Below, in pieces: positions 5,199 through 33,512 of a stretch of 64,000 bases of DNA. Source of the DNA: a virus (Duplodnaviria > Caudoviricetes); the IMG/VR virus record IMGVR_UViG_3300044611_001018. The stretch is one strand, 5' to 3'. Positions within the stretch are counted from its first letter, which is position 1. Each line of letters opens with the position of its first letter. The notes under the pieces were generated by a model, which saw nothing but the letters and a program-made list of their open reading frames with translations, was not told the origin of the DNA and searched no databases. The translations under genes were made by a program, and so were the position numbers.

Positions 5199-5224
5199 AA
5201 AAAAAGAGGGGTAGTAAACCCCTC
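5199..5224 (-). terminator. Intrinsic terminator downstream of regA
   Basis: GAGGGGT-ttact-ACCCCTC followed by T7; a TATAAT (5184-5189) just downstream may drive hsp20. Confidence 0.75.
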
Positions 5225-5244
5225 ACTTTTTTATACGGTTTCTA

Positions 5245-6790: not shown

Positions 6791-6803
6791 GATAATTCTC
6801 CTA

Positions 6804-6944
6804 TCAAAAAACAGCAGTTACTCCAACAACTTTTGCGCCAGGATTACGAGCGAGAGCAACTTGTCGGGCATCTTGATAATCCTTTGCAATCACTTCTTCC
6901 TTAAATACAGTTCCTGCCTTATACAATGTTACTTGACATTTCAT
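6804..6944 (-). CDS. Small hypothetical protein, 46 aa (MKCQVTLYKAGTVFKEEVIAKDYQDARQVALARNPGAKVVGVTAVF)
   Basis: ATG at 6944 within the track ORF; recalled as a small cyanophage ORF following dam. Confidence 0.75.
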   Translation of the reverse strand: MKCQVTLYKAGTVFKEEVIAKDYQDARQVALARNPGAKVVGVTAVF

Positions 6945-7761
6945 AATTAAAAAGCAATAGTTCTTTACGTTGTTTTTGCTCACGCATATATTCACCAACA
7001 GAACGCATTGTATAAGTCAAATCAAACTCAGCAGCGTTCCAGTCCTTAAATCGGTCTTTTACAAGTTGATCGGAGTTATAACTGATTAACTGATCCATAT
7101 CGTTAGTATCGCAATCAGCAGCAAACTTATCGTGATCAAATCCTTTGTGCATTGATCCCTTACGCCCATAGAGGTTGTCCTTAATATCGTAAGGAGGATC
7201 GAGATACATAAAAGCACTCTTGTTTCCATCCATCAGATAGTCGTAGGAATAATTAGTTATACGCCAATTTTTAATTAAAGCAGAATACGCAGGCAGTTTT
7301 TCGATCCCGCGCATAGAGAAGTTGGAGTTCGATGCTTGTTCTGAAAATGATGAACTCTCTGTGAGACCACTGAAGCTACACTTATTAACAACATAAAAAG
7401 CCACAGCACGATCAAAACTGGGCATATTTTTGTCATTTACATGCTCCTTTGACTTTAGGAAAAGTTCTTTAGCAAGTTCAGGAGTATTATACGCTAATTT
7501 ACAATCAACTAACTCATTTTTTAAATCATTACCAAACATCTGAAGTTGTTGCCAGAAGTTTACCAATGGTTCATATAAATCATTTACCCAAATATCTAGG
7601 TTAGGATATTTTTTTGTGATATAAATCGCAACACTTCCACCACCAAGGAATGGTTCTCGGAACTCATTATAGTTACGAAGATCTGGAAAGTATGGTCCCA
7701 TCTTCTCACAAGCACGAGACTTACCACCAGGATAACGAAGGGGAGTTTTAAGAGATTTCAT
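6919..7761 (-). CDS. dam: DNA adenine methyltransferase (Dam/D12 class)
   Basis: PLRYPGGKS, EPFLGGGS (motif I), YLDPPY (motif IV); ATG at 7761 (track start 7764 is TTG); target specificity not established. Confidence 0.92.
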   Translation of the reverse strand: MKSLKTPLRYPGGKSRACEKMGPYFPDLRNYNEFREPFLGGGSVAIYITKKYPNLDIWVNDLYEPLVNFWQQLQMFGNDLKNELVDCKLAYNTPELAKELFLKSKEHVNDKNMPSFDRAVAFYVVNKCSFSGLTESSSFSEQASNSNFSMRGIEKLPAYSALIKNWRITNYSYDYLMDGNKSAFMYLDPPYDIKDNLYGRKGSMHKGFDHDKFAADCDTNDMDQLISYNSDQLVKDRFKDWNAAEFDLTYTMRSVGEYMREQKQRKELLLFNYEMSSNIV

Positions 7762-8282
7762 CAAAGGATCTCCTGAAGATTTTCAAGAATCTGTGCAGAA
7801 GTAATTTTTTTTTCTGCTGGTTTTACATTTGAAGCAAGAATAGTAAAATCACCAGGAAGAAGTTTAAATTTTGCAACTGGAGATTTGGGAGTGAAGTAAA
7901 CGCGCTTATTAACAGTTTCCCAATCAGTAACTCCAAGTGTCATAGAATCAGTATCTACAAGGAGCATATAATCAAAAGTTTTTTCTACTACTTTTGTTTC
8001 CCCACGAAAATTCTTAAGATCGACAACACCAGTAGATCCATTTTTATTAAACATTTTAAGTTTACCTTTCATCTCATAGTTAACTTCATCAGCGGAGACA
8101 AAATCAACTCCATCTTTAAAATCACCAACATATTCAAGTTGACCATCACTCCACTTTGCAAAAGACTTTTCTTGCAACCAAGTGCGGAGAGTTTTAAATG
8201 CATTAGATTTCATTTGAGTTGTGTTAGTTGCTTTAACGCAACCAAAAAACTCTTCAAGGTTAATACGTTCAATGTTAATCAT
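7761..8282 (-). CDS. Hypothetical protein, possible PD-(D/E)xK nuclease, 173 aa
   Basis: LQEKSF...KDGVD-x9-EMK spacing; stop overlaps the dam ATG (TGATG). Confidence 0.55.
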   Translation of the reverse strand: MINIERINLEEFFGCVKATNTTQMKSNAFKTLRTWLQEKSFAKWSDGQLEYVGDFKDGVDFVSADEVNYEMKGKLKMFNKNGSTGVVDLKNFRGETKVVEKTFDYMLLVDTDSMTLGVTDWETVNKRVYFTPKSPVAKFKLLPGDFTILASNVKPAEKKITSAQILENLQEIL

Positions 8283-8297
8283 AATAAAAAATAAAAA

Positions 8298-8585
8298 TCA
8301 AAGGGATAGTTGTTTGCTAGGTGTGATGATTGGACTAAAAATTTGATTATATTGTTCTACAATTTGATCTTGAGTCTCAGATACATAAACAACATAGTGT
8401 TTATTAATTGTAATCTCTTTCACTTCTTTACTAAGAAGAGGAGACCAAGGTGCAAACCCAAGTTCACCTCTTCCAGAAGGAACCGCAACAATTGGATTTG
8501 ATAAAACAAGAGAATTTTCAGTCTCACTGATTAGATCAGCAATAACGTCTTCTCCAGTATTCAGTCTAATAAGTTTTACATTCAT
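8298..8585 (-). CDS. Hypothetical protein (Sm-like small beta-rich phage family)
   Basis: MNVKLIRLNTGEDVIADL...LGFAPWSP...HYVVYVSE; ATG 8585 overlaps the upstream TGA. Confidence 0.8.
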   Translation of the reverse strand: MNVKLIRLNTGEDVIADLISETENSLVLSNPIVAVPSGRGELGFAPWSPLLSKEVKEITINKHYVVYVSETQDQIVEQYNQIFSPIITPSKQLSL

Positions 8586-8821
8586 TGTGAACATCCTACA
8601 TGAATTTGAATTGATTTAAAGGCATTTGCCATTTCTTTGTATCCTAAACCAATATATACTTGTCCAGTAACAACAGCGATTGCCATAGAACCCCAAAAGA
8701 TATAGTACCACTTGGATTTAACTTGATGTTGTTTTTTGAGTTCATCAAGTTCCTCATGAATATCTTGATGATGAAACCTTAAAGGTTTTTGAATAAGTTC
8801 TTTGAGTTTTTTGTTTTTCAT
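8582..8821 (-). CDS. Hypothetical membrane protein, 79 aa
   Basis: Hydrophobic segment WYYIFWGSMAIAVVTGQVYIGLG; ATGA-type overlaps on both sides. Confidence 0.7.
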   Translation of the reverse strand: MKNKKLKELIQKPLRFHHQDIHEELDELKKQHQVKSKWYYIFWGSMAIAVVTGQVYIGLGYKEMANAFKSIQIHVGCSQ

Positions 8822-9765
8822 TTAAACTCACACTCCACCATAATTTCAGTAAGAGCAGCAAGAAGATTTATTTCTTGGTCAGCCACGAATGCACATTGGT
8901 ATTGGTACTTAGCAACAATAAGAACGGCAGCAGGAATAGATTGGGGTGAAAGATCATCAAGAGAGGAGTCATAAATCCTACGAAGTAAACTTGAAGCATC
9001 GTTATCCAAGTTCCCGACCACCCACTTTCGGACTTCAGTAAAGTTTTTAGTTTTGAGATTTTTAATAAGTTCATTTACATTAGTATCAGAGAATGATGCC
9101 AGGATTCCTGTATCAATTTTTCCACCAACAGCATAACGTTGGCACTCATTAAGTACTCGCCTCCAATCTGGAAAATGCTTATTAACCAATTCAATCAGTA
9201 CTTTTTGGTCATATTGAATTGACTCTTTTTGAAGGATGTCTTGAAGGCGAGTAAAAAATGCTGCAGCAAGTTTTGGTTTTTCCTTTGACTTAATTCCAAA
9301 TTCGACGACTGCACATCGAGAATGGAGTGGTTCAATGATTTTGTTCTTGTAATTACAGGTAAAGATGAATCTACAGTTGTTAGCAAACTCCTCAATAGAA
9401 GCACGTAGGAGGAGTTGTACGTCGTTTGTTGTGTTATCTGCCTCATCAATGATGATGACTTTGTGTTTAGCAGTTGACGAAAGTGAGACGGTCGAAGCGA
9501 AGTTCTTCGCATTGTTTCGGACAGTATCGAGGAATCTACCTTCGTCGGATCCGTTAATGACATAAACATCTACTCCCAATTCATTACAGAGTGCTTTTGC
9601 CACCGTTGTCTTGCCACATCCAGCAGGACCAGCAAGAAGCAAGTTTGGCACTTCGCCTTTATTTAGAAAGTCTGTAAATGTTTTCTTAATATTCTCAGGG
9701 AGAATACAATCTTCAATTGTTTTGGGGCGATATTTCTCAACCCACAAAAATTCATCACGACTCAT
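8818..9765 (-). CDS. gp44: Clamp loader large subunit (AAA+)
   Basis: LWVEKYRP, GPAGCGKTT, IIIDEAD, PLHSRC. Confidence 0.97.
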   Translation of the reverse strand: MSRDEFLWVEKYRPKTIEDCILPENIKKTFTDFLNKGEVPNLLLAGPAGCGKTTVAKALCNELGVDVYVINGSDEGRFLDTVRNNAKNFASTVSLSSTAKHKVIIIDEADNTTNDVQLLLRASIEEFANNCRFIFTCNYKNKIIEPLHSRCAVVEFGIKSKEKPKLAAAFFTRLQDILQKESIQYDQKVLIELVNKHFPDWRRVLNECQRYAVGGKIDTGILASFSDTNVNELIKNLKTKNFTEVRKWVVGNLDNDASSLLRRIYDSSLDDLSPQSIPAAVLIVAKYQYQCAFVADQEINLLAALTEIMVECEFK

Positions 9766-9771
9766 AATTTT

Positions 9772-10284
9772 TTATACCCAATCAGGTTTTCGTTCTGGCA
9801 TACGAAGATAATTAGATGCAACCCAAGATTTGGATGCGATATACATCTTGTAAGCAGTAAAAGTGTCAATGCTTGTGTCAAGTTTATACTCATCAGGCAT
9901 CGCTCTCGCAAACGGTGTTACTTCAGTAATCTTTCCTTTAGGAAAAAGATAATAAGCATCCACAAGTGTTTTATAACAAGAGTGAATCTTATTATAGCGA
10001 AGGGCGTACTCATCTGACAAGTTAAGTCCCCACTTAATTAACCAGTAGGCATTGTGGATTGATTCCATTGCCCACTTTGTACATGGATGATTACGGAATG
10101 CTCCCTTCTCTGTCTTGTATGGCGTTCCATCAGACTTTGGAAGAGTTCCGTATCCATGTCCCCATTTGTCAGATGCCACGATAGAGAGCATCTGACAGCA
10201 CTCTAATGGCATTTTGACAACGTGTTTATCAGGGAGACAGACAGCACTTTCAGCAGGCCAAGGAGAGGTTACAAAAATGTTCAT
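9772..10284 (-). CDS. Pyrimidine-dimer DNA glycosylase (DenV)-like protein
   Basis: MNIF...LPDKHVVKMPLECCQMLS...NHPCTKWA...EYALRYNKIH...ARAMP pattern. Confidence 0.7.
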   Translation of the reverse strand: MNIFVTSPWPAESAVCLPDKHVVKMPLECCQMLSIVASDKWGHGYGTLPKSDGTPYKTEKGAFRNHPCTKWAMESIHNAYWLIKWGLNLSDEYALRYNKIHSCYKTLVDAYYLFPKGKITEVTPFARAMPDEYKLDTSIDTFTAYKMYIASKSWVASNYLRMPERKPDWV

Positions 10285-10967
10285 CCAAATGTTGAATCAG
10301 GTTCCAGAGCAATATAATACTTCAGGTCATAATCCTTACTGTCAAAACGTGACAAAAGTTTACTTGAGATGCTGACCTGATATGTTCCAGGAATAATCTT
10401 AATATTTTCTACTTTAAAATTAAAGCAGAAGTTAAGTTCAGTCTCACCCACAATAACTTGGAAGTCATTAGAGGTATCATTCTTTTTATCGCGGACCACA
10501 ATCTTAACAACACCTGCTTCACCGATAACAGACAAATCAGGAAGTTGGAAGATATTAGCAGCTTTAATAAGACGAGTCAGTTGATCGGAAGTAATGCTAA
10601 ACGATACGTCTTCAGAAGGAAGAATAAGTTCTTTTTCTGGAGGAGTAATAATTACGTTTGGATCAGCAAAAAAGTAATTTGAACGAGTTTTACCCTCACG
10701 AATTACAACATAACTATCATGAGTAAAGTCAAGTGCAGGATCTTTATGTAGATCCAATCCATTCAAAAATTGATTGAGATCGTAAATTCCAAAGTCTTTA
10801 GGGATCTCTTCGGTGATGTCTGCTTCTGCAAGAATGTTCTTCATAACACTAATGGTGCGAAGCTTACTACCTTGTTTAAAAAGAATAGATTGATTAATGT
10901 TAGAAAAGTTCTTTAGAAGATTCAGAGTTTTATCAGAAAGTTTCATAGTTTGGGAGTTCAAATTCAT
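10281..10967 (-). CDS. gp45: Sliding clamp
   Basis: MKLSDKTLNLLKNFSNINQSI, FGIYDLNQFL, YYIALE. Confidence 0.97.
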   Translation of the reverse strand: MNLNSQTMKLSDKTLNLLKNFSNINQSILFKQGSKLRTISVMKNILAEADITEEIPKDFGIYDLNQFLNGLDLHKDPALDFTHDSYVVIREGKTRSNYFFADPNVIITPPEKELILPSEDVSFSITSDQLTRLIKAANIFQLPDLSVIGEAGVVKIVVRDKKNDTSNDFQVIVGETELNFCFNFKVENIKIIPGTYQVSISSKLLSRFDSKDYDLKYYIALEPDSTFG

Positions 10968-10969
10968 AA

Positions 10970-11497
10970 TCATCGAAATTCGGAAAGACCATTGTCTTTG
11001 CGAGAATAATGCCCATCAAAGTGAAGGAGTAGCATGGCATAGTGAATGACTTTCATCAGGTCACGTTTGTTGCGACCATCTTTGTCACCATAACGACTGC
11101 CATATTTAAGAATATTTGCTTGACAAAAACCAGGAGCAAGATCCTTAGCTGCCATCAAATCAATAGTTTGAATGTCTTTGTGATCTTGATTGTGCCCACA
11201 GTAATGACTACCATAAGTGCTAGTCACATAATCCTCAATATCTTTGAGGATTTTATCTTCATTGTATTTCCAAAGATGATTTTTAGTTTCACTCATATTA
11301 AGATTAAAAGTGTAAGGTGAATTCAAAGTAAGGTGGTCATCACCCATACCACCAGGGAGTCTAGATCCAAGAACAATCATGTCTGGTGAAGGATTGGGAT
11401 TACCTGTTAAACTAATTCCATCTTCAACCCAAAAATCTTGATTTGATAAGTTAGACATTAAATTAAAATCGTTTTCTGAATAAGGATGTTCGTCCAT
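10970..11497 (-). CDS. DUF3310-like (T7 gp1.7 nucleotide-kinase-like) protein with acidic N-terminal extension
   Basis: HY...IQTIDL...GFCQANILKYGSRYGDKDGRNKRDLMKVIHY; start 11497 or 11515 uncertain. Confidence 0.65.
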   Translation of the reverse strand: MDEHPYSENDFNLMSNLSNQDFWVEDGISLTGNPNPSPDMIVLGSRLPGGMGDDHLTLNSPYTFNLNMSETKNHLWKYNEDKILKDIEDYVTSTYGSHYCGHNQDHKDIQTIDLMAAKDLAPGFCQANILKYGSRYGDKDGRNKRDLMKVIHYAMLLLHFDGHYSRKDNGLSEFR

Positions 11498-11503
11498 AAT
11501 AAA

Positions 11504-11528
11504 GGGGAGGGTCATAATTTACCTCCCC
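11504..11528 (-). terminator. Hairpin downstream of the MoxR-like ATPase, possible terminator
   Basis: GGGGAGG-taaattatgac-CCTCCCC then TTTATT (weak U-tract). Confidence 0.5.
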
Positions 11529-11536
11529 CAATTATA

Positions 11537-12670
11537 TCAGAATGGGGTGGGTTGGTCAATGTATTCTGCAGTCAGTTCAGGACCAGTAGAAGGCATTTGG
11601 AAGTCAGCATCCACTTTATCATACAGTTCCAGGAAGGACTGTTTGGTTTCGTCATCAAAACGATTCACACACACTTGGATTGCCTTTGCCTTGTCTTGGA
11701 AGATGCTATAAGCACGAATGATATGGACAAGACGGCGGGTGCTAATGATTTCATCAATACCACCATCGTAGAAGGTCTTGCGAATGATGTCTGCCCAGTC
11801 AACCAGGCGCTTACAGAAGTCGCGGTCTTCCACGCCAAGGTCCAGAGCAATGCCTTCCAGAATCTTCTGTTCAGTAGCAGGAGCAGGATAGGACTGCTCA
11901 AAGGTCACAGGGAAACGCTCAAGGAATGCTTCGTTGAGAACGTTAGTGCCGATGAAGCGACCATCATCACTACCCTTACCTTTGGTGTTAGCGGTAGCAA
12001 CAACGTTGAAACCCGCAGCGGGTTTGACATACTTACCAATTTTCTTAAGGAAGACACCCTTGCCTTCCAGAACAGACTGAAGGCAGAGGATTTTATTGGA
12101 GGCAAGGTCAATCTCATCCAGAAGCAGAATTGCACCACGTTCCAGAGCTTCCACAACAGGACCATTGTGCCAAACGGTCTCACCATTCACCAGACGGAAA
12201 CCACCAATCAAATCATCCTCATCAGTCTCAATCGTGATGTTGACACGAATCATCTCACGCTTTAGTTGAGCACAAGCTTGTTCCACACTGAACGTTTTAC
12301 CATTACCCGAAAGACCCGTAATGAACGTTGGATAAAACAAACAGGACTGAATAATACGTTTAACATCTTTAAAATTACCAAACTGGACGAAGGTATCATC
12401 TTTGTCAGGAATAAGATTTTGTTCGATGGAAGGAAGAGCAGAGGGAGACTGGAATGTACGTTCAATTTCATTGACTCGCTCTTGGGTTACCTCAAGATTC
12501 CAACGCCCACGAGAAGTTTTAAATTGCTCAAGGCGACGAGTCACTGTCTGATAATTCAGACCATGAGAAGCACAGAAACCCCTAAGATCGCCAGAAGTAA
12601 TTTCAGAACCATAAAGTTCTTTGATGCTATCAAAAAGGGCTTCGTCGTTCACAGAAGATTTGCGAGACAT
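11537..12670 (-). CDS. MoxR/CobS-like AAA+ ATPase, 377 aa
   Basis: GLSGNGKT (Walker A), LLLDEID (Walker B), ATANTKG, LNEAFLERF, ISTRRL; usually labelled cobS in cyanophages. Confidence 0.92.
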   Translation of the reverse strand: MSRKSSVNDEALFDSIKELYGSEITSGDLRGFCASHGLNYQTVTRRLEQFKTSRGRWNLEVTQERVNEIERTFQSPSALPSIEQNLIPDKDDTFVQFGNFKDVKRIIQSCLFYPTFITGLSGNGKTFSVEQACAQLKREMIRVNITIETDEDDLIGGFRLVNGETVWHNGPVVEALERGAILLLDEIDLASNKILCLQSVLEGKGVFLKKIGKYVKPAAGFNVVATANTKGKGSDDGRFIGTNVLNEAFLERFPVTFEQSYPAPATEQKILEGIALDLGVEDRDFCKRLVDWADIIRKTFYDGGIDEIISTRRLVHIIRAYSIFQDKAKAIQVCVNRFDDETKQSFLELYDKVDADFQMPSTGPELTAEYIDQPTPF

Positions 12671-12702
12671 GATGTAGTTGGGTGGTTTGTTTCAACATAG
12701 TA

Positions 12703-12747
12703 ATTGTACACTGACTTTGAGGAAGATGGAGTTACCAGTGGACGGTT
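12703..12747 (-). promoter_or_regulatory. Promoter: AACCGTCCAC motif, 29 nt, then TACAAT (-10)
   Basis: Motif at 12738-12747, -10 at 12703-12708; same spacing as the copy at 15088-15132. Confidence 0.6.
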
Positions 12748-12912
12748 CTAAGATTGTCCCATCTGCTCAAAGAATTTTTTAGATATTATTTTAGCGGTAT
12801 ATCCTGGGTAATACTTTTTTACCCAGGACTCCACTCCCATTGCTGTGATTACACTATCACATAAAATGAATACTTCTTTAGTTTCTTCTTTAACTATGTG
12901 TTGCAAATTCAT
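12748..12912 (-). CDS. Small hypothetical protein, 54 aa (MNLQHIVKEETKEVFILCDSVITAMGVESWVKKYYPGYTAKII...)
   Basis: Hand-translated; ATG overlaps the vWA gene stop (ATGA-type). Confidence 0.65.
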   Translation of the reverse strand: MNLQHIVKEETKEVFILCDSVITAMGVESWVKKYYPGYTAKIISKKFFEQMGQS

Positions 12913-15065
12913 TTTGCTACCAACTCAATAAATTCATTAAGGATTTTTTTATTCATTTTTTTACCCCTAAGACTTTTAACAAAAGCGGATTTAATTTGTG
13001 ATTTAGTAGCACATTCCGCAATGTCAAACTCACTATCTTGGGCAAGAGCAGTTGCAGACAATCCAAAATAAGTATTGTAGGAAGATTTTTTAATAGAAAT
13101 TGTTTTTTCTTTTTTCCAAACGCTCATCATTTTATCCAATTCTTCTCCATACCAACCATAATAGCGACGAATAAAATTACCAGCATCCCTAGGTTCAAGG
13201 ACACGAATTCCAATAAAGTTGATGTTTGAGAATTTGTCCCTAAGATTTTGAAGAAGAATTTCAGTAATCGTATGATGATTACCATCGAACGCATATGTAT
13301 TCCCAGTTTTACGATCTCTTAGGTAAGCATTTGCTCCAATATGGGATGTTCCCAAATATGGTTCAGATTCCCAATGACGCTTAACTTCGCGGTGATAGGT
13401 AACATTACAAGCTTCACCATCAGTAAGAATAACACATTGAACTTTTTGGAGTTTATTATCTTTTTGAAATTTTGGAAGAATTTGATGCAAAGCGATTAGA
13501 GATTCATTTAATGGCGTTCCCGAAAGACTAAGACCAGAAGGAACACTATATTGACAATAAAAATGGCGATCAAATGAATGAGCAATTCGGAAAATATTTT
13601 TCATTTGTTCTTCCAGAATTTTTGAATTTGTTTTACTAGTCAACATATTCATCAAAGAAAACCATTCTACAACTTGAATGAGTCCATCTCTTTTTTTATA
13701 AGATAGCATACGAAGATCTGCCTTTCCATCTGAACTATATTTGACCAAAGGATAATCGGTAGTGAATGCGTATACTTCAAAAGGAATTGAGACTTTTTTA
13801 CAGAACCAAATCAGATTAAACAACTGTTTAATAGTATCGACAATTACATCAGACATTGATCCAGACCAGTCTAAAATAAACACCAATCCATGATTTTTTC
13901 CTTCAGCAAGAGTAGTTACTTTTTTAAAAAGATCTTCATTATGCTTATAGGTATGAAGTTTAGAACAGTCCAAAACACCAGTACGAGCAACTGTCGATCG
14001 AGAATAAGAGTCAGCTGCTTTACGACATTCAAACTCTTTAACAAGATATGTAACTTCTTTTTGTGCTGATTTTTTAAATTCTTGATATCGCTTGTCCACT
14101 TCACCAAAAATATGTTCTTTAGAGAAGTTGTGATTTTCAAGAAACTCATTCCAACTCTCACTACATTTAGAATGAATTTCGGAATTTGGAACAATAATTT
14201 TACCAAGATCTAGTTCGGGCAATTCTAGATAAACGTTTTCAAAACAAGAGTTATCTACAAGATCCTTAAGAGCTTCCTCAAGAGAATCCATAGTCTTAAC
14301 TTCTGGTTCTTCAATATTCTCCGCACCAATAGGGGATTTGATAGTTTGTTCTCTTTGTTGAGACTTTTCTTGAGAATTAGCACCTCCAGAACCATCAGAC
14401 TCTGGTTGGTCATTCTCACCTTCCTGCTGGTCAGTAAAGTCGGAAGCAGGTTGATTGTTAGCACCACTCTGCTGGGACTCAAGATTATCCAAAGAAATCT
14501 TGGTTTCTTCCTGTTGCTTGTGTTTACAATACTTATAGAGTTCCTCTGCTGCCACGAGCACATCAGCAAAGGTTTCAGTGTCGGCAATCAGATTGATAAT
14601 TTCAGTCTCTTCACCACGCTCAATGGGAATATCTGTGTAGTTACCAATCTTGAAATAAAGATTTGCGCGATCGGCAAGATTATAAGTTTCCAGTTTATCA
14701 TCACCAATCTGGAAGAAATCATCATCGGCAAGTTCCTTGTAACCGTTATAGAAGGTCTTGGCGAGACCAGCATAACGACGCTTCATCAGTTTCTCAATAC
14801 GAGCATCCTCTACTACATTCACAAACTGTGGGGGAATCTTATGCTCCTTCAACCAGTCTTCATCAGGTGTATAGAGAGCGTGACCAACTTCGTGACCCAC
14901 CAGAAGGTCATACACGGTGTTGCTTGCCTTCTCCCACATCGGCAGAGTCAGGACACGAGTATGAACATTAAAGCAAGCAGTCTCCACCTTCTTGTGCTCA
15001 ACCACAAGGTCTTCGGTAGCAAGCAGCTTGGCGAGTTGGGACTTGATTTCGTGGCGAACAGACAT
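12909..15065 (-). CDS. Metallopeptidase-like plus vWA domain protein (MoxR partner), 718 aa
   Basis: GHEVGH (HExxH), NVVEDARIE, acidic linker, FILDWSGSM (MIDAS), LSGTPL, ILTDGE. Confidence 0.88.
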   Translation of the reverse strand: MSVRHEIKSQLAKLLATEDLVVEHKKVETACFNVHTRVLTLPMWEKASNTVYDLLVGHEVGHALYTPDEDWLKEHKIPPQFVNVVEDARIEKLMKRRYAGLAKTFYNGYKELADDDFFQIGDDKLETYNLADRANLYFKIGNYTDIPIERGEETEIINLIADTETFADVLVAAEELYKYCKHKQQEETKISLDNLESQQSGANNQPASDFTDQQEGENDQPESDGSGGANSQEKSQQREQTIKSPIGAENIEEPEVKTMDSLEEALKDLVDNSCFENVYLELPELDLGKIIVPNSEIHSKCSESWNEFLENHNFSKEHIFGEVDKRYQEFKKSAQKEVTYLVKEFECRKAADSYSRSTVARTGVLDCSKLHTYKHNEDLFKKVTTLAEGKNHGLVFILDWSGSMSDVIVDTIKQLFNLIWFCKKVSIPFEVYAFTTDYPLVKYSSDGKADLRMLSYKKRDGLIQVVEWFSLMNMLTSKTNSKILEEQMKNIFRIAHSFDRHFYCQYSVPSGLSLSGTPLNESLIALHQILPKFQKDNKLQKVQCVILTDGEACNVTYHREVKRHWESEPYLGTSHIGANAYLRDRKTGNTYAFDGNHHTITEILLQNLRDKFSNINFIGIRVLEPRDAGNFIRRYYGWYGEELDKMMSVWKKEKTISIKKSSYNTYFGLSATALAQDSEFDIAECATKSQIKSAFVKSLRGKKMNKKILNEFIELVAK

Positions 15066-25585: not shown

Positions 25586-26239
25586 TCAAAGGGAATTCAA
25601 AAAGTCATTGAATAAGTTTAACTTATGTTCTTCTAATTCTCTTCTTCTAGAAAGATTTTCAATTCTTTGTCTGGTTTGGTTTGCAATCTTTTCACGAAGA
25701 ATTCCACCATCCCAAATCCACTCCTTACCTTCCATAATTCCCTGAACAAAAGCATCAGGGGCAGAAGGATCGGCAACAATATCTGCTGCAGTTGCAAGCA
25801 TGAAGTCTTCACCAACTTCTTTATAACCACCTTTAATATTTTCTCTTAAAGAACCAATACCACGAGAAGAAACACCGAGAGTTACTCCGTCTTTAAGAAG
25901 TGCTTCAGCAATCTTACCCATTGGGGTATGTAGGATTTGTGCTTTACCAATAAAATTATTACCGTCTTGCTTAAGTTCAGTAATCTTATGAGAAACTCTA
26001 TCGAGATTTACGGTGGGACCATCTGGGTGTCCTAGCTCCCCAAGTGCTCTACCTTTATTAACATAATCATTAGTATATCTCTTTACTTCTCTTTCCATGA
26101 TAGAGAAAGGATACATTCTACCATTGCGATTTACCATTTCGCTTTGGAGGAATACTCCTGAAATATACATTTGTTTTTTACCACCAACACTCTCGGTGAT
26201 AACTTCAACCTTTTCGATTTCTTCTCTGATAAGTTTCAT
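25586..26239 (-). CDS. gp21: Prohead protease
   Basis: NRNGRMYP, ALGELGHP, LGVSSRGIGS, DIVADPSAPDA. Confidence 0.97.
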   Translation of the reverse strand: MKLIREEIEKVEVITESVGGKKQMYISGVFLQSEMVNRNGRMYPFSIMEREVKRYTNDYVNKGRALGELGHPDGPTVNLDRVSHKITELKQDGNNFIGKAQILHTPMGKIAEALLKDGVTLGVSSRGIGSLRENIKGGYKEVGEDFMLATAADIVADPSAPDAFVQGIMEGKEWIWDGGILREKIANQTRQRIENLSRRRELEEHKLNLFNDFLNSL

Positions 26240-26243
26240 TGGT

Positions 26244-26513
26244 TTAATTTGTAAATCCTACTTTTGTTACTTTTATTGATGATGCTGAAGCCCAAATAAT
26301 ATCAGTAGGTAATTTTTGTACAAATTCAACAGCACCAGTGGGCAAGGTAAATGAATAAGATGCACTTGCCCCAACAGATTCTGAAATTACAATTGTAGTT
26401 GCTGCACCAGCTCCATTGTATAATCGTACACATGTTGCAGAAAGTATACTTGTTCCAGCACCAGAAGAAGTTGCTAAATCAGTTTCTATAGAAAGTGGTT
26501 TTGTTACTTGCAT
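26244..26513 (-). CDS. Hypothetical beta-rich protein in the head module, 89 aa
   Basis: ATCVRLYN...FTLP..AVEFVQK.PTD; late motif ATAAATA at 26540-26546. Confidence 0.75.
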   Translation of the reverse strand: MQVTKPLSIETDLATSSGAGTSILSATCVRLYNGAGAATTIVISESVGASASYSFTLPTGAVEFVQKLPTDIIWASASSIKVTKVGFTN

Positions 26514-26555: not shown

Positions 26556-26717
26556 TTATTCTGCATCTAGTGCAATGGAATCAAACATTGAATTTGAAAC
26601 GGATGGTCTCAACACTTCGATTTTTTCTGCTGAGCGAGTGTAGAGCAAATCTTTAATCTTATCAGAAATTGTAGATGGTGCTTCATCACCAACAATCATA
26701 TCTAGAAGTTCTTCCAT
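26556..26717 (-). CDS. Small prohead-region protein, 53 aa (MEELLDMIVGDEAPSTISDKIKDLLYTRSAEKIEVLRPSVSNSMF...), syntenic with T4 gp67/gp68
   Basis: Hand-translated, missing from the track; CTAAATA at 26742-26748; an in-frame upstream ATG exists at 26729. Confidence 0.75.
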   Translation of the reverse strand: MEELLDMIVGDEAPSTISDKIKDLLYTRSAEKIEVLRPSVSNSMFDSIALDAE

Positions 26718-26741
26718 TGATATTCTCATGAATTACTCTAG

Positions 26742-26756
26742 TATTTAGAATAAATA
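26742..26756. promoter_or_regulatory. Back-to-back divergent late-promoter motifs
   Basis: CTAAATA on - (26742-26748) and ATAAATA on + (26750-26756). Confidence 0.6.
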
Positions 26757-26757
26757 G

Positions 26758-27678
26758 ATGACGGGTAAAATATATTTGATTATGAGTTGTGATAAATTAA
26801 AAAATTTCCCTCATGTATTTTATTTTACTTTAGACAATGAAGTAAAACGACAAAAATATATGGAGGAACAATTTAAATTATATGGCATTACATTTACAAA
26901 AATCTCAATGCCATTGGGGTTTCCAGAATACTTAAAGGAAAAAATATTAGATGTTCATTCAGAATTAGCATCTAAACGATGTTTAGCATACAATTATTTT
27001 TTAATTGATACTTTAAGAAATTGGTATTTTGAAACAAATGAATCTTATGTAATATTAATGGAAGATGATTATGATTTGAGTTTTATCAATCATTGGCATT
27101 TTAGTTGGGATGATCTATTAACATATCTTCCTTATGATTGGGATTCTATACAATTGGGACATGAGTGCCCAGACATAGTTAGATTTTATTTGCATCCAGT
27201 TCAAAGTAATTATTCTCTTGGTCCAGTATTATTAAAACGAGAACATGTTGAAAAACTTTTGAATCTTTTTTATATCAATGGTAGATATAAATTTAATGGA
27301 GTTGTTGCCAACTCAATTTATATCAATAGAGAATCTGGAATAGGCGATAATTATTTCTTTAACGATCTTGCAGGGACTCCAGATTATTTTTTATGTCAAA
27401 CTGGGAATACGTATACTGTACCATTAATTCCATGTAATCCTTTTTTTAAAGGATCAACTCATGTTACTGAATGGTATCCAATGAAATCTTTTATTTGTTG
27501 TTATGAAGCATATAAAGAATGGTGGGAAAACGACAAAGATAATTTTAGTTTAAATGATTTTTTTAGTTTTGGTAAATCCAATGACAACTTAATGGAGAGA
27601 GATATTAGGCGATGGGACGATAAATATTTCCATCAAAGAGCAATCGAACAACATAATAAGGTTATCTCTACGTTATGA
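26758..27678 (+). CDS. GT25-like (GT-A fold) glycosyltransferase
   Basis: FYFTLDNEVKRQKYMEEQF, YVILMEDD, DWDSIQLG patterns; true start may be ATG 26782 given the promoter position. Confidence 0.65.
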   Translation: MTGKIYLIMSCDKLKNFPHVFYFTLDNEVKRQKYMEEQFKLYGITFTKISMPLGFPEYLKEKILDVHSELASKRCLAYNYFLIDTLRNWYFETNESYVILMEDDYDLSFINHWHFSWDDLLTYLPYDWDSIQLGHECPDIVRFYLHPVQSNYSLGPVLLKREHVEKLLNLFYINGRYKFNGVVANSIYINRESGIGDNYFFNDLAGTPDYFLCQTGNTYTVPLIPCNPFFKGSTHVTEWYPMKSFICCYEAYKEWWENDKDNFSLNDFFSFGKSNDNLMERDIRRWDDKYFHQRAIEQHNKVISTL

Positions 27679-29480
27679 AAAATATATATTTTATCCAACC
27701 ACAATATAGTGTTAATGTAAGAGACACTAAGAATTATTGGATGCCTTATAGTGTTTCTTGCTTATGGAGTTATTGTAAACAATTTAAAGATATAGCAGAG
27801 TCATTTGAGTTAAAAGATATTATCTTTAAAAGAGAAAATCCAGAAGAACTGCTAAAAAGATTAGATAATCCTACAATTTGTGCTTTTAGTTGTTACCTAT
27901 GGAATGAACAATATAATCTACACCTTGCTAAACTAATAAAACAAAAATATCCAAACTGCATTATTGAATTTGGTGGTCCCCAAGTAACCGCAAAAATGAT
28001 GGAAGAAAATCCATTCATTGATTGTGTTATTCTTGGTGAAGGTGAAGAGGCATTTTTAGAATTATTGAGATGCATTAATACTGGAAATCCAATCAATAAA
28101 GTTCATGAAAGAACGAGGATAAATTCTTTAGACTTTAAAAGTCCCTATCAATCTGGAGTCTTTGATTGGTTATATGATAAAAATCCAGATGTTATTTGGG
28201 CAGCAATTTTAGAAACAAATAGAGGTTGTCCTCACAGATGTACTTTTTGTGATTGGGGTGGAACAACTATGAGTAAAATTAATACATTTGGACTAGAGAG
28301 AGTCGCTGAAGATATTGAATGGATACGAACACATAGAGTTGCTTATGTCTTATGCGCTGATGCAAACTTTGGAATATTTAAAGAACGTGATATTGAAATA
28401 GCAAAAATGTTGCGTAAAGCAGCTGAAAATAGTTTAATTCTAGACAATATAGATTTGCAGTATTCAAAAAATTCAAACGAATCTGCTTTTGAAATAGCAA
28501 AAATTATGGGAGAATACTCTAGAAGAGGAGTTACTTTGAGTGTTCAAAGTATGAATATGCCGACATTAAAAGCTATCAAGAGAAAGAATTTACACGTTAA
28601 AGATATTGCTGGACATGTAGAATTAGCAAAAAAACATAATGTAAAATTATACACAGATTTAATTTTGGGGATGCCCGAAGAAACAGTAGATTCTTGGAAG
28701 GATGGAATTGATTTGTTGATGGAAAACGGGCAACATTTTTCTGTAGACTCCTGGTTCTGCCAAGTATTTGAAAATGCTGAATTGGGTAGTGAATTTAGTA
28801 GAAAAACTTATGGTATAAAAACAATTAAAGCAGAAGATTATATATCATTCTGTAATGATGAGTTTGATGCTACAAAAGAATATGTCGAATTAATTTGTGA
28901 GACTGATACAATGTCTAAACAAGACTTTTTTGATGCTCATATGTTTTCTTGGATAACAATTAAATTTCACTATGTTGGATACACACAAATTTTATCCAAG
29001 TATTGTCGCCATGTATTAGGAATAAGTTATAGAAAATTTTATGAATCATTGTATGAATATACAATGAATGATTCTGGATTCTTAGGAACTGAGTTTAGGG
29101 AATATTTAAAGGCAATAAAGGAATACTTTAATACTGGAAAAGTTCCTTCTAACCACTCAAGTGGACATGGATTGGGAGTTGGTATGCCAAATGATACTTT
29201 ATCTAGATTTGAAAATAAAGATAAGATACTAGATTTTGTTGAAAATTTTGCAAGGACAACTTTTAATATAGAAGAAAGTATCTTTGATATCCAGAGAAAG
29301 TTTGTTTATGACCCAGATGTAAATTATCCATATGTTGATAGTTTACCGTTTGACTTAGATACATGGGAAAAAAGAGATACAAAATATTCCATAGAAAATG
29401 AAAGAACCGAAGATGAAAGATATAATTTGTTCGTTATCAAAAGAAAGTATCTTACAAAAAATACAATGGTAAAACTATGA
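27675..29480 (+). CDS. Cobalamin-binding-domain radical SAM enzyme (class B-like), copy 1, 601 aa
   Basis: B12-domain pattern AFSCYLWN...AKLIKQKYP..IIEFGGP...DCVILGEGE; RGCPHRCTFC (CxxxCxxC); DANFG; DLILGMPEET. Confidence 0.9.
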   Translation: MKNIYFIQPQYSVNVRDTKNYWMPYSVSCLWSYCKQFKDIAESFELKDIIFKRENPEELLKRLDNPTICAFSCYLWNEQYNLHLAKLIKQKYPNCIIEFGGPQVTAKMMEENPFIDCVILGEGEEAFLELLRCINTGNPINKVHERTRINSLDFKSPYQSGVFDWLYDKNPDVIWAAILETNRGCPHRCTFCDWGGTTMSKINTFGLERVAEDIEWIRTHRVAYVLCADANFGIFKERDIEIAKMLRKAAENSLILDNIDLQYSKNSNESAFEIAKIMGEYSRRGVTLSVQSMNMPTLKAIKRKNLHVKDIAGHVELAKKHNVKLYTDLILGMPEETVDSWKDGIDLLMENGQHFSVDSWFCQVFENAELGSEFSRKTYGIKTIKAEDYISFCNDEFDATKEYVELICETDTMSKQDFFDAHMFSWITIKFHYVGYTQILSKYCRHVLGISYRKFYESLYEYTMNDSGFLGTEFREYLKAIKEYFNTGKVPSNHSSGHGLGVGMPNDTLSRFENKDKILDFVENFARTTFNIEESIFDIQRKFVYDPDVNYPYVDSLPFDLDTWEKRDTKYSIENERTEDERYNLFVIKRKYLTKNTMVKL

Positions 29481-31249
29481 AAAATCTTTACATGCTCCAA
29501 CCACAATATGCGGTTGAAATTAGGAAAGAAGATACTTATTGGTTGCCATATAGTGTCGGATGTTTATGGGCATATTGCTCACAGTTTGAAGATATAGTAA
29601 AAAACTACACATTAAAAGATCTCATATTCAGAAGAGAAGACCCAGAAGAATTAATTGATAGGTTAGATAACCCTGCAATATGTGCTTTTAGTTGTTATGT
29701 TTGGAATGAACAATACAATCTTCATGTAGCAAAATTAATCAAAGAAAGATTTCCAGAATGTATTATTGAATTTGGCGGACCACAAGCAACACATAGATTA
29801 AATGAATATGATTTTATCGACTGTATTATTGTATCAGAGGGTGAGGAAGCATTTTTAGATTTTTTAAGGAAAGTAAATAACAAAGAAAAAATTGACAAAA
29901 TCTATGCAAAAAAAAGAATTGAGGATTTAAACTTTCCAAGTCCATATCAAATTGGGGTATTCGATAAAATTATTGAAGACAACCCAGGTGTTTTATGGGC
30001 AATGACTATGGAAACTAACAGGGGTTGCCCTCATAGATGCACTTATTGTGACTGGGGTGGATTAACTTATACAAAAGTAAGGCACTTTGATATTCAAAGA
30101 GTTAAAGATGATATTGATTGGGCCAGGAAAAACAATGTTGGATTCATTTTTAATGCTGATGCAAATTTTGGTATGTTTAAAGAACGAGATTTAGAAATTG
30201 CAAAGTTATTCAGAGAAGCAGCAGATGAAGGCAATCTTGAAGCAATAAACATACAATACTCTAAAAATTCTACTGAAGTAATTTTTGAGATAGCAAAAAT
30301 ACTTGGAGATATTAGTAGAGGTGTAACTTTAAGTGTACAAACCATGAATGAACCAACACTTAAAGCAATCAAAAGAAAAAATATGAGTATTAATAAAATA
30401 TCAGAACAAATTGAAAAAAGTAAAGAATATGGTGTAAAAACATATACCGAATTGATTCTTGGTCTACCCGAAGAAACTTTAGATACTTGGAAAGATGGGT
30501 TTTCTAAAATTCTTGAATGTGGTCAGCACGAATCTATTGATGTTTGGTTTTGTCAAATGTTTGGTGATACTGAATTAAATAGTACTACTTCAAGGGAAGT
30601 TTATGGAATAAAAACAATTAAAGCGGAAGATTATGTATCTTTTGGAAATGATAGAGATTATGATGGTGTTACTGAAACAATCGAATTAATCTCAGAAACT
30701 AATACAATGACAAATAATCAATTAATTGAAGCGTATATGTATGGATGGTTAATTGTTCAATTTCATATTGCTGGATATACTCAGATAGTTGCTAAACACT
30801 ATTATGAAAATTTAAATATATCCTATCGGGTATTTTATGATACTTTATTTGAATTTATTAAGTTGGATAATGGATTAATAGGTGAACATTATCGTGAGAT
30901 TGAATCTGCGGTAAATCATTATATGAAAACTGGAAAAATATTGAAAAAAGGAAAGCATGGGCATACCTTACATGCGGGAAGTTTTGCTTTTATGTTTACG
31001 CATAAGGATGAAATTTTTAAACTCGTAGAGAATGCAACACAAAAAATAACACCAATCAAAACAGATATTATATCTTTACAACGTGCGTTTATTTTTGACG
31101 AGGAGACTCAATATCCTTTTTATCTCACATGTGAAGATAAAAAGTACAAAATAGATACTGAATTCAAATCATTTGATAAGAATGATCCTCATACTGTGTT
31201 TATTTTGCGGCGCAAAGGTCTATTGAAGAATCAATTATGTAAGGTTTGA
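29477..31249 (+). CDS. Cobalamin-binding-domain radical SAM enzyme (class B-like), copy 2, 590 aa
   Basis: Same architecture; RGCPHRCTYC; ELILGLPEET; ATGA overlap with copy 1. Confidence 0.9.
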   Translation: MKNLYMLQPQYAVEIRKEDTYWLPYSVGCLWAYCSQFEDIVKNYTLKDLIFRREDPEELIDRLDNPAICAFSCYVWNEQYNLHVAKLIKERFPECIIEFGGPQATHRLNEYDFIDCIIVSEGEEAFLDFLRKVNNKEKIDKIYAKKRIEDLNFPSPYQIGVFDKIIEDNPGVLWAMTMETNRGCPHRCTYCDWGGLTYTKVRHFDIQRVKDDIDWARKNNVGFIFNADANFGMFKERDLEIAKLFREAADEGNLEAINIQYSKNSTEVIFEIAKILGDISRGVTLSVQTMNEPTLKAIKRKNMSINKISEQIEKSKEYGVKTYTELILGLPEETLDTWKDGFSKILECGQHESIDVWFCQMFGDTELNSTTSREVYGIKTIKAEDYVSFGNDRDYDGVTETIELISETNTMTNNQLIEAYMYGWLIVQFHIAGYTQIVAKHYYENLNISYRVFYDTLFEFIKLDNGLIGEHYREIESAVNHYMKTGKILKKGKHGHTLHAGSFAFMFTHKDEIFKLVENATQKITPIKTDIISLQRAFIFDEETQYPFYLTCEDKKYKIDTEFKSFDKNDPHTVFILRRKGLLKNQLCKV

Positions 31250-31862
31250 ATGCTTGCAATGCCTCATCCCACAAAATACGATGTTCATAATCTTTATCCT
31301 TGTCAATTAAAGCAATAGTTACTGTAAATCTTTTATCATCTGTTGGATTATGTGAACTATGTAATGGACCAACATTCACTAATCCGCATGTGCCTATCTC
31401 TACCTCATATTCTTTTTTACAGTATTCTTCTCTACTGACTAAAACTTGTCCATGATAATGATCATCAGTTCTATCTCCAACACTATATTGATTACGTTCT
31501 GGTATAACTGTTGAATAAACTTGCTCAGCACTGGTACTTACTCTTAAAACCATATCCGATGTCCACCATCTCATGGTGCTTCCTTTTGCACCAAATTGAA
31601 ATATTAGTTTTGCCCAATCAGCATAATAAACATTATCAGAATGTATAACTCCATCATCATGTGGTGGAGTATAAAAAAATTCTATCCAGTGTGATGTAAA
31701 TCCCAAACTATTCAACCAGGGTAAAATTTTATCATTACCCAGGTCTTCAAATTGAAGTTGTTTATGAAACTCTGGCCATCTCATACCTTCAGTTTGATAC
31801 TTTGATGTATCAATATTAGGGATATAGTCCCTAATATCCAAAAATCTATGATAACGATTCAT
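31200..31862 (-). CDS. Putative Fe(II)/2OG dioxygenase or cupin (DSBH) protein, 220 aa
   Basis: GVIHSD (HxD), LVNVGPLHSSHN (distal His), KRFTVTI (Arg); starts 3 nt after the gp20 stop. Confidence 0.6.
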   Translation of the reverse strand: MNRYHRFLDIRDYIPNIDTSKYQTEGMRWPEFHKQLQFEDLGNDKILPWLNSLGFTSHWIEFFYTPPHDDGVIHSDNVYYADWAKLIFQFGAKGSTMRWWTSDMVLRVSTSAEQVYSTVIPERNQYSVGDRTDDHYHGQVLVSREEYCKKEYEVEIGTCGLVNVGPLHSSHNPTDDKRFTVTIALIDKDKDYEHRILWDEALQAFKPYIIDSSIDLCAAK

Positions 31863-31865: not shown

Positions 31866-33512
31866 TTAAATTTGTGGCGGTTCTACAGATTTACTTTGAC
31901 TATCTAAGTTTGGTTCGTTAATCGGTGCTCCAAGATTCTGATCTGCGGCAACTGGTTGACCAGTTGCAGGATCAATAGGAGCATTTGGGTCTGGAATAAT
32001 GCCAGCAGCAATTTCCTTTTTGATAAGTTTATCTTGCTCAATGATTTCTTCATCTGTTTGACGTAAAATTTTACGTCTTACATAATCTTGAGAATAATAC
32101 TTGCCAATATATGGTTCTGCTGTTGCTGCAATATTTAACCTTTCAGTCATTAATTCAGCATCTTTTAACTCTGCAAAATGATTATCATATAAGAAGTCAT
32201 ATTGAATATGCTCTTCCATTAACTCCCAATCTTCTGGAGTAACTATGTTTTTAAGAAGTAGTTGAGTTCTTAACATGTCACTAAACATGTTTGAGAATCT
32301 CTTTCTTAATCTTCCAACAAATTTAGTAAACTTTAATTCATCTCTTAAAATTTCTGAAGACCTTCCTAAGTTAAATCCTTCTTGACCACCAATTCTTGAA
32401 GATGGTACGTTTAATGAACGGTATAACTTTTCTTGGAAGTATTTGATATCGCTCAATTCACCTAAATTTTGACCACCAGGAAGAGTAGAAATTTCTGTTC
32501 CTCTACCACCTTCCCTCCTAGGGAGCCAAAAATCCTCAAGCATACTCATATATTTTTTATCATCACGAATCTCACCAGTATTTGCATCATATACCAGTTT
32601 GTTACGATATCTCATCATAACATCACGAAGATATTGTTCTGCCTTCATTTTAGGCAAATTGCCAACATCAATATAAAAAATTCTACGTTCTGGTGCTCTT
32701 GATAATCTGTAGATAACCAAAGAATCTTCAATCATGCGAAGTTGATTGAGTGATTTAATTGCTTTATGCAAATATGATAGAGTTAAATTTTTATTTCTAT
32801 CGACTAGACCAGAAGTACAAAATGTAATAGAATCTTTTGAAAATTTTGTTCCTTGATTTACTTGATTTGAACTATTATTGATTGTTCCTATTTGAGTTGC
32901 TGAGGCATTGTAAATAAAGTATTCCTGAATATCTGGAAATGCAGAATCCATTGGATCCTTTTCACCATTAGGTCCAAGTCTTCCATCATCTTTCTTACCC
33001 TTAGAAGACTGCCTAACATATCGCATTTTCAATGCGTCAATATATCTTAGTTCCTGAATGCCATCTTGTGGATTTTTTAAGTCAATAACTTTATGATAAT
33101 AAAGTCTACCGTCAACATACCAATTTCTATAGATCTCATGGGCTTTTTTATCAAAGTCCATTAATTCTAAAATATGCTTAAACTCTTCTCTTATTTTTTT
33201 CTTAAGACCATCACTAGCATTTAGATTGTCAAGATCAATTTGAACTGGACTATCATTGGTATCACTTACAATTGCCTCATTTACAATATCTTCAATAGCA
33301 CCATCAACTTCTGGATGCAATGCCATCTCTCGATATCTTTTGATTAAATCATATTCACTTCTATATACCCCTTCAATATCTACATAAGACCCAAAAAATC
33401 CACTAGTAAGATAATAGTCAACCCCGTCCTCATTATTTTGAGGTACGGGGGAGACCACTCCTGGTGATTTTTTATTACTATCCTCTATAGAGAATCCAAA
33501 TAGTTTTGCCAT
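31866..33512 (-). CDS. gp20: Portal vertex protein
   Basis: MAKLFGFSI, YREMALHPEVD, RAPERRIFYIDVGNLPK, EDFWLPRREGGRGTEI; ATAAATA at 33541-33547. Confidence 0.99.
   Translation of the reverse strand: MAKLFGFSIEDSNKKSPGVVSPVPQNNEDGVDYYLTSGFFGSYVDIEGVYRSEYDLIKRYREMALHPEVDGAIEDIVNEAIVSDTNDSPVQIDLDNLNASDGLKKKIREEFKHILELMDFDKKAHEIYRNWYVDGRLYYHKVIDLKNPQDGIQELRYIDALKMRYVRQSSKGKKDDGRLGPNGEKDPMDSAFPDIQEYFIYNASATQIGTINNSSNQVNQGTKFSKDSITFCTSGLVDRNKNLTLSYLHKAIKSLNQLRMIEDSLVIYRLSRAPERRIFYIDVGNLPKMKAEQYLRDVMMRYRNKLVYDANTGEIRDDKKYMSMLEDFWLPRREGGRGTEISTLPGGQNLGELSDIKYFQEKLYRSLNVPSSRIGGQEGFNLGRSSEILRDELKFTKFVGRLRKRFSNMFSDMLRTQLLLKNIVTPEDWELMEEHIQYDFLYDNHFAELKDAELMTERLNIAATAEPYIGKYYSQDYVRRKILRQTDEEIIEQDKLIKKEIAAGIIPDPNAPIDPATGQPVAADQNLGAPINEPNLDSQSKSVEPPQI

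Follow-up and report, generated by a model that had tools for sequence, protein, structure and literature searches.

What is a pair of cobalamin-type radical S-adenosylmethionine (SAM) enzymes doing among the head genes of a phage? The question is raised by IMG/VR virus record IMGVR_UViG_3300044611_001018, whose 64,000-nucleotide stretch (hereafter the window) covers the structural region of a lake-derived, T4-like cyanomyovirus. Between the genes for the portal (gp20) and the prohead protease (gp21) lie six genes: orf220, RS2, RS1, GT, orf57 and orf89. A preliminary description, made from the sequence by itself, joined four of these, a glycosyltransferase gene (GT), the radical SAM genes RS1 and RS2 and a dioxygenase-like gene (orf220), into one self-contained pathway that would hydroxylate, glycosylate and methylate a target late in infection. 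Our comparisons instead point to a cassette of GT, RS1 and RS2, exchanged by recombination and built on RS2 as its constant core, beside an orf220 that belongs with the portal gene. For this cassette we tentatively favour B12-dependent C-methylation of a glycan.

TokK-like radical SAM enzymes and their glycosyltransferase

The assignment of RS1 and RS2 to the cobalamin-type radical SAM enzymes is upheld by domain profiles, motifs and homology to TokK and CysS. Both proteins match the Radical_SAM profile (PF04055; 56 bits for RS1 and 58.7 bits for RS2, cut-off 29.5), and both carry the CxxxCxxC signature, as GCPHRCTFC in RS1 and GCPHRCTYC in RS2; its cysteines, C184, C188 and C191, do not vary across the 40 family members compared. 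The B12-binding profile (PF02310, cut-off 32.1) is matched by RS1 at 37.5 bits and by RS2 at 24.3 bits, which is below the cut-off, and residues 21–130 of RS2 align without a gap to the cobalamin domain of TokK. Both enzymes have the N-terminal Rossmann-type domain of class B radical SAM enzymes and are predicted to bind cobalamin through it. The two proteins are 51% identical to each other, and for both the best solved relatives are TokK and CysS, with TokK (7kdx) matched over ~460 residues at E values of 2.8e-74 for RS1 and 4.4e-75 for RS2 (residues 21–483).

A preprint on TokK places Trp76 beneath the cobalt and Trp215, within the motif CDWG, in the active site; both tryptophans are common to TokK, ThnK and CysS and, among the methylases compared there, are not found in TsrM, Fom3, PhpK or GenK. 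In RS2, W76 aligns to TokK Trp76, and W193, likewise within CDWG, aligns to Trp215. Across 40 diverse family members W76 is invariant and W193 is kept in at least 90%. RS2 is predicted to be a TokK/CysS-like cobalamin-dependent radical SAM C-methyltransferase. TokK and ThnK (carbapenem C6 alkylation) and CysS (cystobactamid), all sequential C-methyltransferases, have the same three domains as RS1 and RS2, namely a Rossmann cobalamin domain, a radical SAM barrel and a C-terminal domain, and by analogy the mechanism is probably alike, with methylcobalamin as methyl donor and a 5'-deoxyadenosyl radical that abstracts hydrogen. Unlike these enzymes, RS1 and RS2 are phage-encoded tandem paralogues in a head module, with no carbapenem or aromatic scaffold genes near them. 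The substrate of RS2 is expected to differ from that of TokK, because the substrate-binding Arg280 of TokK is replaced by Asn; the alignment stops short of Tyr652. A tblastn search with RS1 against 50,697 phage records, from which those of this same genome may be hidden, returned just one weak match and supplied no cultured relative to compare. The radical SAM family is nonetheless abundant in aquatic viromes: the Atlas holds at least 55 viral clusters of it with at least 50 members each, alongside many 90%-identity clusters in metagenomes.

The first gene of the cassette, previously called GT25-like, does have a predicted GT-A fold closest to that of GT25 enzymes. GT matches the glucosyltransferase family PHROG 2835 (E 3.8e-28), and its AlphaFold2 (AF2) model has a predicted local distance difference test (pLDDT) score of 86.7. 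The best Foldseek matches of this model are Mimivirus R655, human COLGALT1 (a collagen hydroxylysine galactosyltransferase) and GT25 beta-1,4-galactosyltransferases, at E values of 2e-7 to 1e-5. An EDDxD motif is invariant in homologues (E102, D103, D104 and D106), and COLGALT1, the beta-1,4-galactosyltransferases of bacterial lipooligosaccharide (LOS) and R655 share with GT both the fold and an acidic motif of this DxD type; sequence identity to GT25 enzymes and R655 is only 11–15%. Homologues in cyanophage records, 26–34% identical to GT, bear a GT25 annotation, and one 42%-identical homologue (P0107) carries the GT25 family PF01755.

Exchange of the cassette and architecture of related loci

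We aligned the window at the nucleotide level with L066, the nearest virus record compared. Identity is 99–100% on either side, between gp23 and gp21 and between orf220 and gp18, and drops to 55–85% exactly over positions 26780–31200, which hold GT, RS1 and RS2; orf89 is 64–67% identical and the segment of orf57 and the promoter 98%. The breakpoints fall at the promoter and at the 3' overlap of RS2 and orf220. Because near-identical flanks enclose a divergence of 15–45% that is confined to GT-RS1-RS2, the alignment indicates that the cassette is exchanged by recombination (allelic replacement), as is seen where diversifying selection acts on a locus. A broad clade, with relatives from both marine and freshwater samples, shares the insertion site. 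The exact window sequence is present in 19 lake-water metagenome runs, which do not count as independent support because any of them may be the source sample of the assembly.

A wider comparison used 75 IMG/VR loci, recovered through an alignment of orf220, and two assembly contigs, which together gave ~34 complete intervals from gp20 to orf57. About 18 loci are of the window type, with GT, two RS genes and orf220, and two or three more add a third RS gene upstream of GT. Three have GT, RS2 as the only RS gene, and orf220; ten have two RS genes and orf220 without GT; and one, on a 255-kb contig (L088), has two RS genes and neither GT nor orf220. In a maximum-likelihood tree, the portal-proximal RS proteins of 37 loci (RS2 position) form one clade with 100/100 support, and the proteins of the second position (RS1) split into at least five clades, all of them deep. 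The type of the second RS protein and the type of GT mostly co-vary across loci, with some reassortment, and one backbone type bears three different second-RS types. From these architectures and the tree, RS2 emerges as the constant core of the cassette, RS1 and GT as exchangeable, and orf220 as dispensable.

These results do not fit the single self-contained pathway first proposed, given that GT is missing from ~11 of the ~34 complete loci, the second RS gene from three and orf220 from L088. Members of the orf220 family also occur elsewhere in cyanomyoviruses without RS genes, and orf220 itself sits outside the swapped cassette. The preliminary description had named independent occurrence of its genes in relatives, beforehand, as the outcome that would speak against it, and the relatives display this in part: RS2 is constant and the other genes vary.

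Further variation was observed at the start of the operon. The third RS gene of L014, L015 and probably L011 is the first gene behind the late promoter and encodes a very divergent B12 radical SAM protein (branch length 1.4). In the GT-less loci L051, L057, L060, L064 and L065, the operon opens with a small acidic open reading frame (ORF) of 51–115 aa, between the promoter and the first RS gene. Its motif, YPGPF(T/N)xxSDNDD(A/Q)IAH, is conserved across these five loci, and its product might serve either as a peptide substrate or as an accessory protein.

Predicted late transcription, flanking genes and orf220

The four genes are a true insertion into the head block, because S-CAM7 and P-SSM2 have just a homologue of orf57 between gp20 and gp21; the interruption that had been noted in the window was thus real (Table 1). 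GT, RS1 and RS2 also run against the rest of the window as described, all other ORFs of at least 145 aa that are not nested in a longer minus-strand ORF being on the minus strand. ATGA overlaps of 4 nt join GT to RS1 at 27675 and RS1 to RS2 at 29477, and orf220 starts 3 nt past the gp20 stop. What stood less well was the emphasis on AT-richness: positions 27001–27060 do have 11 G+C in 60, but the whole cassette differs modestly from the window (29.9% against 33.7% GC), and further stretches of the window equal it.

Table 1. Features of the gp20–gp21 interval and its flanks, in window coordinates
Feature	Position	Strand	Basis
gp21, prohead protease (flank)	25586–26239	-	match to S-SM2 gp21; Peptidase_S77 on homologues
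orf89, small Ser/Thr/Ala/Gly-rich protein, hypervariable	26244–26513	-	PHROG 19805
orf57, small conserved head-module gene	26556–26729	-	PHROG 14164, E 2e-21; synteny
Back-to-back late-promoter cores, TATTTAG-a-ATAAATA	26742–26756	both directions	sequence and conservation in relatives
GT, predicted GT-A fold, GT25-like, 298 aa	26782–27678	+	PHROG 2835; AF2 model; upstream in-frame ATG 26758 would give 306 aa
RS1, cobalamin-type radical SAM, 601 aa	27675–29480	+	Pfam B12-binding and Radical_SAM; TokK homology
RS2, cobalamin-type radical SAM, 590 aa	29477–31249	+	Radical_SAM; TokK homology
orf220, divergent double-stranded beta-helix protein, 220 aa	31200–31862	-	fold and invariant H-x-D...H...R
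gp20, portal (flank)	31866–33512	-	match to S-CAM7 portal genes; Pfam Portal_T4 on homologues in L088 and L089

Late expression of the cassette, as first proposed, is supported by a conserved promoter motif. The published late promoter of cyanomyoviruses is NATAAATA (PMC2984593). In the window, ATAAATA at 26750–26756 faces the + strand cassette, and its near-mirror, CTAAATA on the minus strand, faces orf57, orf89 and gp21; the two late-type cores form the palindrome TATTTAG-a-ATAAATA, with one core for each of the divergent transcription units. The sequence aATAAATA at 26749–26756, a NATAAATA-type core as expected of a T4-type late unit, ends 25 nt upstream of ATG 26782. Its spacing to that ATG, -32, matches the -33 to -35 found ahead of gp20, of orf89 and of the gene whose start is at 54062. 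Relatives keep the pair of motifs in the corresponding intergenic region (ATAAATA in 24 and CTAAATA in 4 of 29 distinct sequences), independently of whether the first + strand gene is GT, an RS gene or a small ORF. Across the window ATAAATA occurs twice on the + strand and 16 times on the minus strand, and the total of 18 is below the 37 ± 6.5 expected for both strands. This scarcity and strand bias suggest selection against stray late promoters, above all those antisense to genes.

The promoter also bears on the start of GT. A single nucleotide separates ATG 26758 from the promoter core. This ATG is an unlikely start, because the core is too close for transcription to include it and because it is not conserved in relatives; ATG 26782 is conserved. 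Gene callers begin GT at ATG 26782 (the 298-aa P0086), and the AF2 model shows residues 1–9 of the longer version as disordered (pLDDT below 50). The true start is probably ATG 26782, for a protein of 298 aa.

In RNA data, one library yielded a single exact 248-nt contig within RS1 (29069–29316), from which timing and strand are not readable. Its depth is on the order of that of the portal gene and far below that of gp23. Other metatranscriptome matches were mostly reads of related phages on gp23 and gp22.

At the other end of the cassette, RS2 and orf220 converge and overlap by 50 nt at their 3' ends (31200–31249), so that two late transcripts would be complementary there. Most relatives carrying both genes keep an overlap, of 27–52 nt, and two are without it. 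A terminator-like site is absent between the ends of the two genes.

The HxD...H dioxygenase proposed for orf220 finds support in its predicted fold and motif. The AF2 model (pLDDT 90.2) is a double-stranded beta-helix, and H74, D76, H168 and R178, invariant in 40 sequences, lie on or beside the model strands 73–75, 167–172 and 178–184. They are the predicted facial triad and the predicted basic residue for the C5 carboxylate of 2-oxoglutarate (2OG). VIA-align comparisons gave Z scores of 8.8–6.4, and almost every one of the 50 top matches was a 2OG oxygenase or a cupin, although values of Z below 8 are not decisive by themselves; Foldseek searches of the pdb, afdb and viral libraries agree with a 2OG-oxygenase fold. 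We found no Pfam, NCBIfam or PHROG match for orf220 or for 40 homologues and no match to orf220 in the 50,697 phage records, where those of this genome may again be hidden, and hhalign gave a probability of 1.3% against a phage Asp_Arg_Hydrox protein. The oxygenase call rests on fold and motif because the curated profile searches gave nothing. Unlike the cassette, orf220 is 99–100% identical to the copy in L066 and belongs to the conserved flank with the portal gene. Homologues of at most 56% identity are found in other cyanomyoviruses beside psbA/psbD or thyX/phoH, without RS genes. By these comparisons, orf220 is a portal-coupled 2OG-oxygenase-like neighbour, usual but dispensable for the cassette.

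On the gp21 side, orf89 is a second, separate hypervariable spot, with 41–48% identity between phages whose gp21 and orf57 are 97–100% identical. Its homologue in P-SSM2 (PSSM2_127, T4-GC 123) lies upstream of gp17, and in some relatives a copy stands before gp18, on its upstream side.

Substrate and acceptor of the predicted methylases

To ask what such enzymes act on, we turned to the gene neighbourhoods of eight RS homologues from outside the locus, 31–39% identical and located in five named genomes and three unassigned metagenome contigs. Five of the eight lie in nucleoside diphosphate (NDP)-sugar or polysaccharide clusters (GHMP kinase, nucleotidyltransferase, 4,6-dehydratase, DegT, SIS, GT2, ABC-2). 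In Pelagibacteraceae (L107), the neighbours are a GHMP kinase, GT2, epimerases, a 4,6-dehydratase and a split transketolase; in Ca. Methanoperedens (L103), a nucleotidyltransferase, a GHMP kinase, DegT, SIS, a TylF-type methyltransferase and ABC-2. An unassigned metagenome contig (L092) has two GT2 genes, DegT and about five B12 RS genes, Oscillospiraceae (L099) have tandem RS genes with GT2, and Rhodospirillaceae (L105) a cytidylyltransferase and an FkbM methyltransferase. In Alphaproteobacteria (L102), the homologue sits with YcaO, a subtilase and P450, a setting like that of ribosomally synthesized and post-translationally modified peptides (RiPPs). Neighbours are uninformative in a gammaproteobacterial metagenome-assembled genome (MAG; L097) and in a wastewater metagenome (L093; a kinase, an aminotransferase and another radical SAM enzyme). 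For the distant homologues P0252, P0261, P0270 and P0277, the contigs are too short to be of use.

Two of these contigs hold features of their own. On L092, a 59.9-kb ENA metagenome contig, one of the B12 radical SAM proteins encoded within positions 1–13500 is a 1283-aa tandem fusion of two such enzymes. On L107, a single-cell or MAG contig, the 33%-identical B12-type radical SAM gene (7938–9965) lies within the sugar-nucleotide/GT2 island. Pelagibacteraceae are generally thought to use little cobalamin, which makes this gene odd; contamination or a phage-derived island is possible.

Sugar or glycan C-methylation is the best-supported chemistry because of these contexts, the ATGA-coupled GT and the co-variation of GT with the second RS type, an argument of guilt by association. 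The reading we lean towards, while holding it tentatively, is that a glycan is C-methylated late in infection by B12-dependent enzymes, its likeliest acceptor being the virion. Starting from the observed families, gene order, promoter motif, swapping and modularity, we infer the sugar substrate, the methyl transfer and the acceptor as follows. Late in infection, GT would add a sugar. The methylases, using (pseudo)cobalamin supplied by the host together with SAM and a reductant, would then attach methyl groups, one or several, to carbons of the sugar or glycan that are not activated, and the outcome would be a glycan structure that differs between otherwise near-identical phages. The virion would be the likeliest acceptor because the cassette lies in the head module under a late promoter, and the host envelope would come second. 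orf220 may ready the acceptor by hydroxylation, without being an obligatory member of the cassette. A more specific version, which we regard as possible but doubtful, has the tandem TokK-like enzymes, throughout a widespread clade of marine and freshwater cyanomyoviruses, building C-alkylated groups, possibly of ethyl or isopropyl type, on a virion sugar or protein with host (pseudo)cobalamin, so that swapping would yield varied surface decorations and phage fitness would be tied to host B12.

Several observations weigh against C-methylation of a glycan. The characterised closest relatives, TokK, ThnK, CysS and KedN5, modify small-molecule natural products and not sugars. The best NCBIfam model for both enzymes is the KedN5 methylcobalamin C-methyltransferase (NF033712), which RS1 matches at 182.2 and RS2 at 179.6 bits against a cut-off of 700; by this score they are relatives of the KedN5 subfamily, not members. 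For GT, a Pfam search at E values up to 0.1 found no family, including GT25 (PF01755), and the Foldseek scores are moderate (TM 0.41–0.45 for R655 and COLGALT1, E 2e-7 to 1e-6). One of the homologue contexts, L102, is RiPP-like. Because ~11 of the ~34 complete loci are without GT in the cassette, RS2 must be able to act on something made elsewhere. Finally, the RS1 contig, single and short, is weak evidence of transcription.

Some of these points have led us to consider that the methylases C-methylate the side chains of a protein or peptide directly, whether a head or other virion protein such as orf89 or a RiPP-like peptide, with GT and the oxygenase as optional tailoring. The position in the head-assembly block behind a late promoter, the retention of RS2 in GT-less loci, the small acidic ORF (YPGPF..SDNDD.IAH) that opens five of those loci, the hypervariability of the adjoining orf89 and the L102 context all agree with this, and class B radical SAM enzymes that methylate peptides are known (matches to TIGR03975 and ApyD). 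The RiPP methylase models, however, match far less strongly than the TokK/KedN5 type (E 1e-12 to 1e-8 against 1e-53 to 1e-75), the small acidic ORF is confined to its five loci and absent from the window, and most distant homologue contexts are sugar clusters, which leaves direct action on protein or peptide a serious rival but, in our estimate, an unlikely one. The same arguments from glycan chemistry would apply if the cassette instead altered the lipopolysaccharide (LPS) or another surface glycan of the host late in infection, leaving the virion untouched and either stopping progeny from adsorbing to infected cells and debris or excluding competitors. Away from their structural module, cyanomyoviruses have many LPS-like clusters that include GT25-like genes, and hypervariability would suit a locus of phage-phage or phage-host conflict. 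We nevertheless rank envelope remodelling as somewhat less likely again, as a late promoter and a head-module site are odd for remodelling a cell near lysis and the cassette is missing flippase, polymerase and lipid-carrier genes alike.

Two further explanations seem to us improbable. Given that the closest characterised relatives are natural-product methylases, and given the neighbours of the wastewater homologue (L093), the methylases might make or alter a diffusible, natural-product-like small molecule unrelated to the virion. The head module would then be no more than a site that tolerates insertion and offers a strong late promoter; conserved T4 modules often have genes inserted between them. 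Such a product is hard to reconcile with the absence of polyketide synthase, nonribosomal peptide synthetase and beta-lactam synthetase genes among the window ORFs in or near the cassette, with the Asn at the position of TokK Arg280, and with an insertion site kept over a broad marine and freshwater phage clade. Least probable, in our judgement, is hypermodification of phage DNA at or before packaging, through base oxidation, glycosylation and C-alkylation. The cassette is probably late and adjoins the portal gene, 2OG oxygenases and GT-A enzymes participate in known base hypermodification, and AlkB-family structures are among the fold matches of orf220 (Z 6.5–7.3). Protein hydroxylases, however, rank equal or higher, and orf220 has no specific similarity to TET or JBP. 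Both orf220 and GT are dispensable in some loci, the sugar-cluster contexts of distant RS homologues do not point to DNA, and we know of no class B radical SAM enzyme that acts on it.

Specific acceptors were considered separately and rejected. As a substrate that co-varies with the methylases, orf89 fails in that L004 and L005 have RS1 proteins 93% identical yet orf89 proteins only 47–48% identical. The small acidic ORF was discarded as a general precursor peptide, on account of its restriction to five loci other than the window. The pairing of a 2OG hydroxylase with a GT25-like enzyme recalls the collagen LH3/COLGALT1 system; Gly-X-Y repeats are absent from all coding frames of the window, the only matches lying opposite a real gene, and a collagen-like acceptor was dropped.

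Returning to late glycan C-methylation, parallels exist in other phages. In mycobacteriophages, glycans on capsid and tail proteins have reportedly been shown experimentally, and the virion glycosylation cassettes have glycosyltransferase genes in or beside the virion structural operon and co-expressed with it, as here. Those cassettes are not known to contain cobalamin radical SAM enzymes, and they belong to other host and phage lineages. The LPS-like clusters of cyanomyoviruses P-SSM2 and S-SCSM2R combine GT25-like paralogues (26–34% identity), many 2OG oxygenases, sugar-nucleotide enzymes and an occasional radical SAM enzyme; unlike the cassette, they lie outside the structural module and are without a TokK-like cobalamin enzyme. 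The statement that no characterised phage system has this composition agrees with our full-text literature search, which found none, nor any description of a virus in which a cobalamin-dependent radical SAM methylase is at work. The parts are known kinds of enzyme; it is their combination that is undescribed, with tandem TokK-like methylases as a core, a palindromic late promoter and swapping at the population level.

Where the genome is otherwise most conserved, the cassette stands out as a hypervariable island, and for that reason it is a candidate determinant of phage-host or phage-environment interaction. It also offers a natural marker for recombination among cyanophages in the wild. With RS1 and RS2, chemistry of the TokK type would reach new substrates, which may be carbohydrates. 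Should the enzymes be active, the phage would rely on the pseudocobalamin of its host in order to reproduce, and this among the most abundant phototrophs, an unrecognised viral demand for B12.

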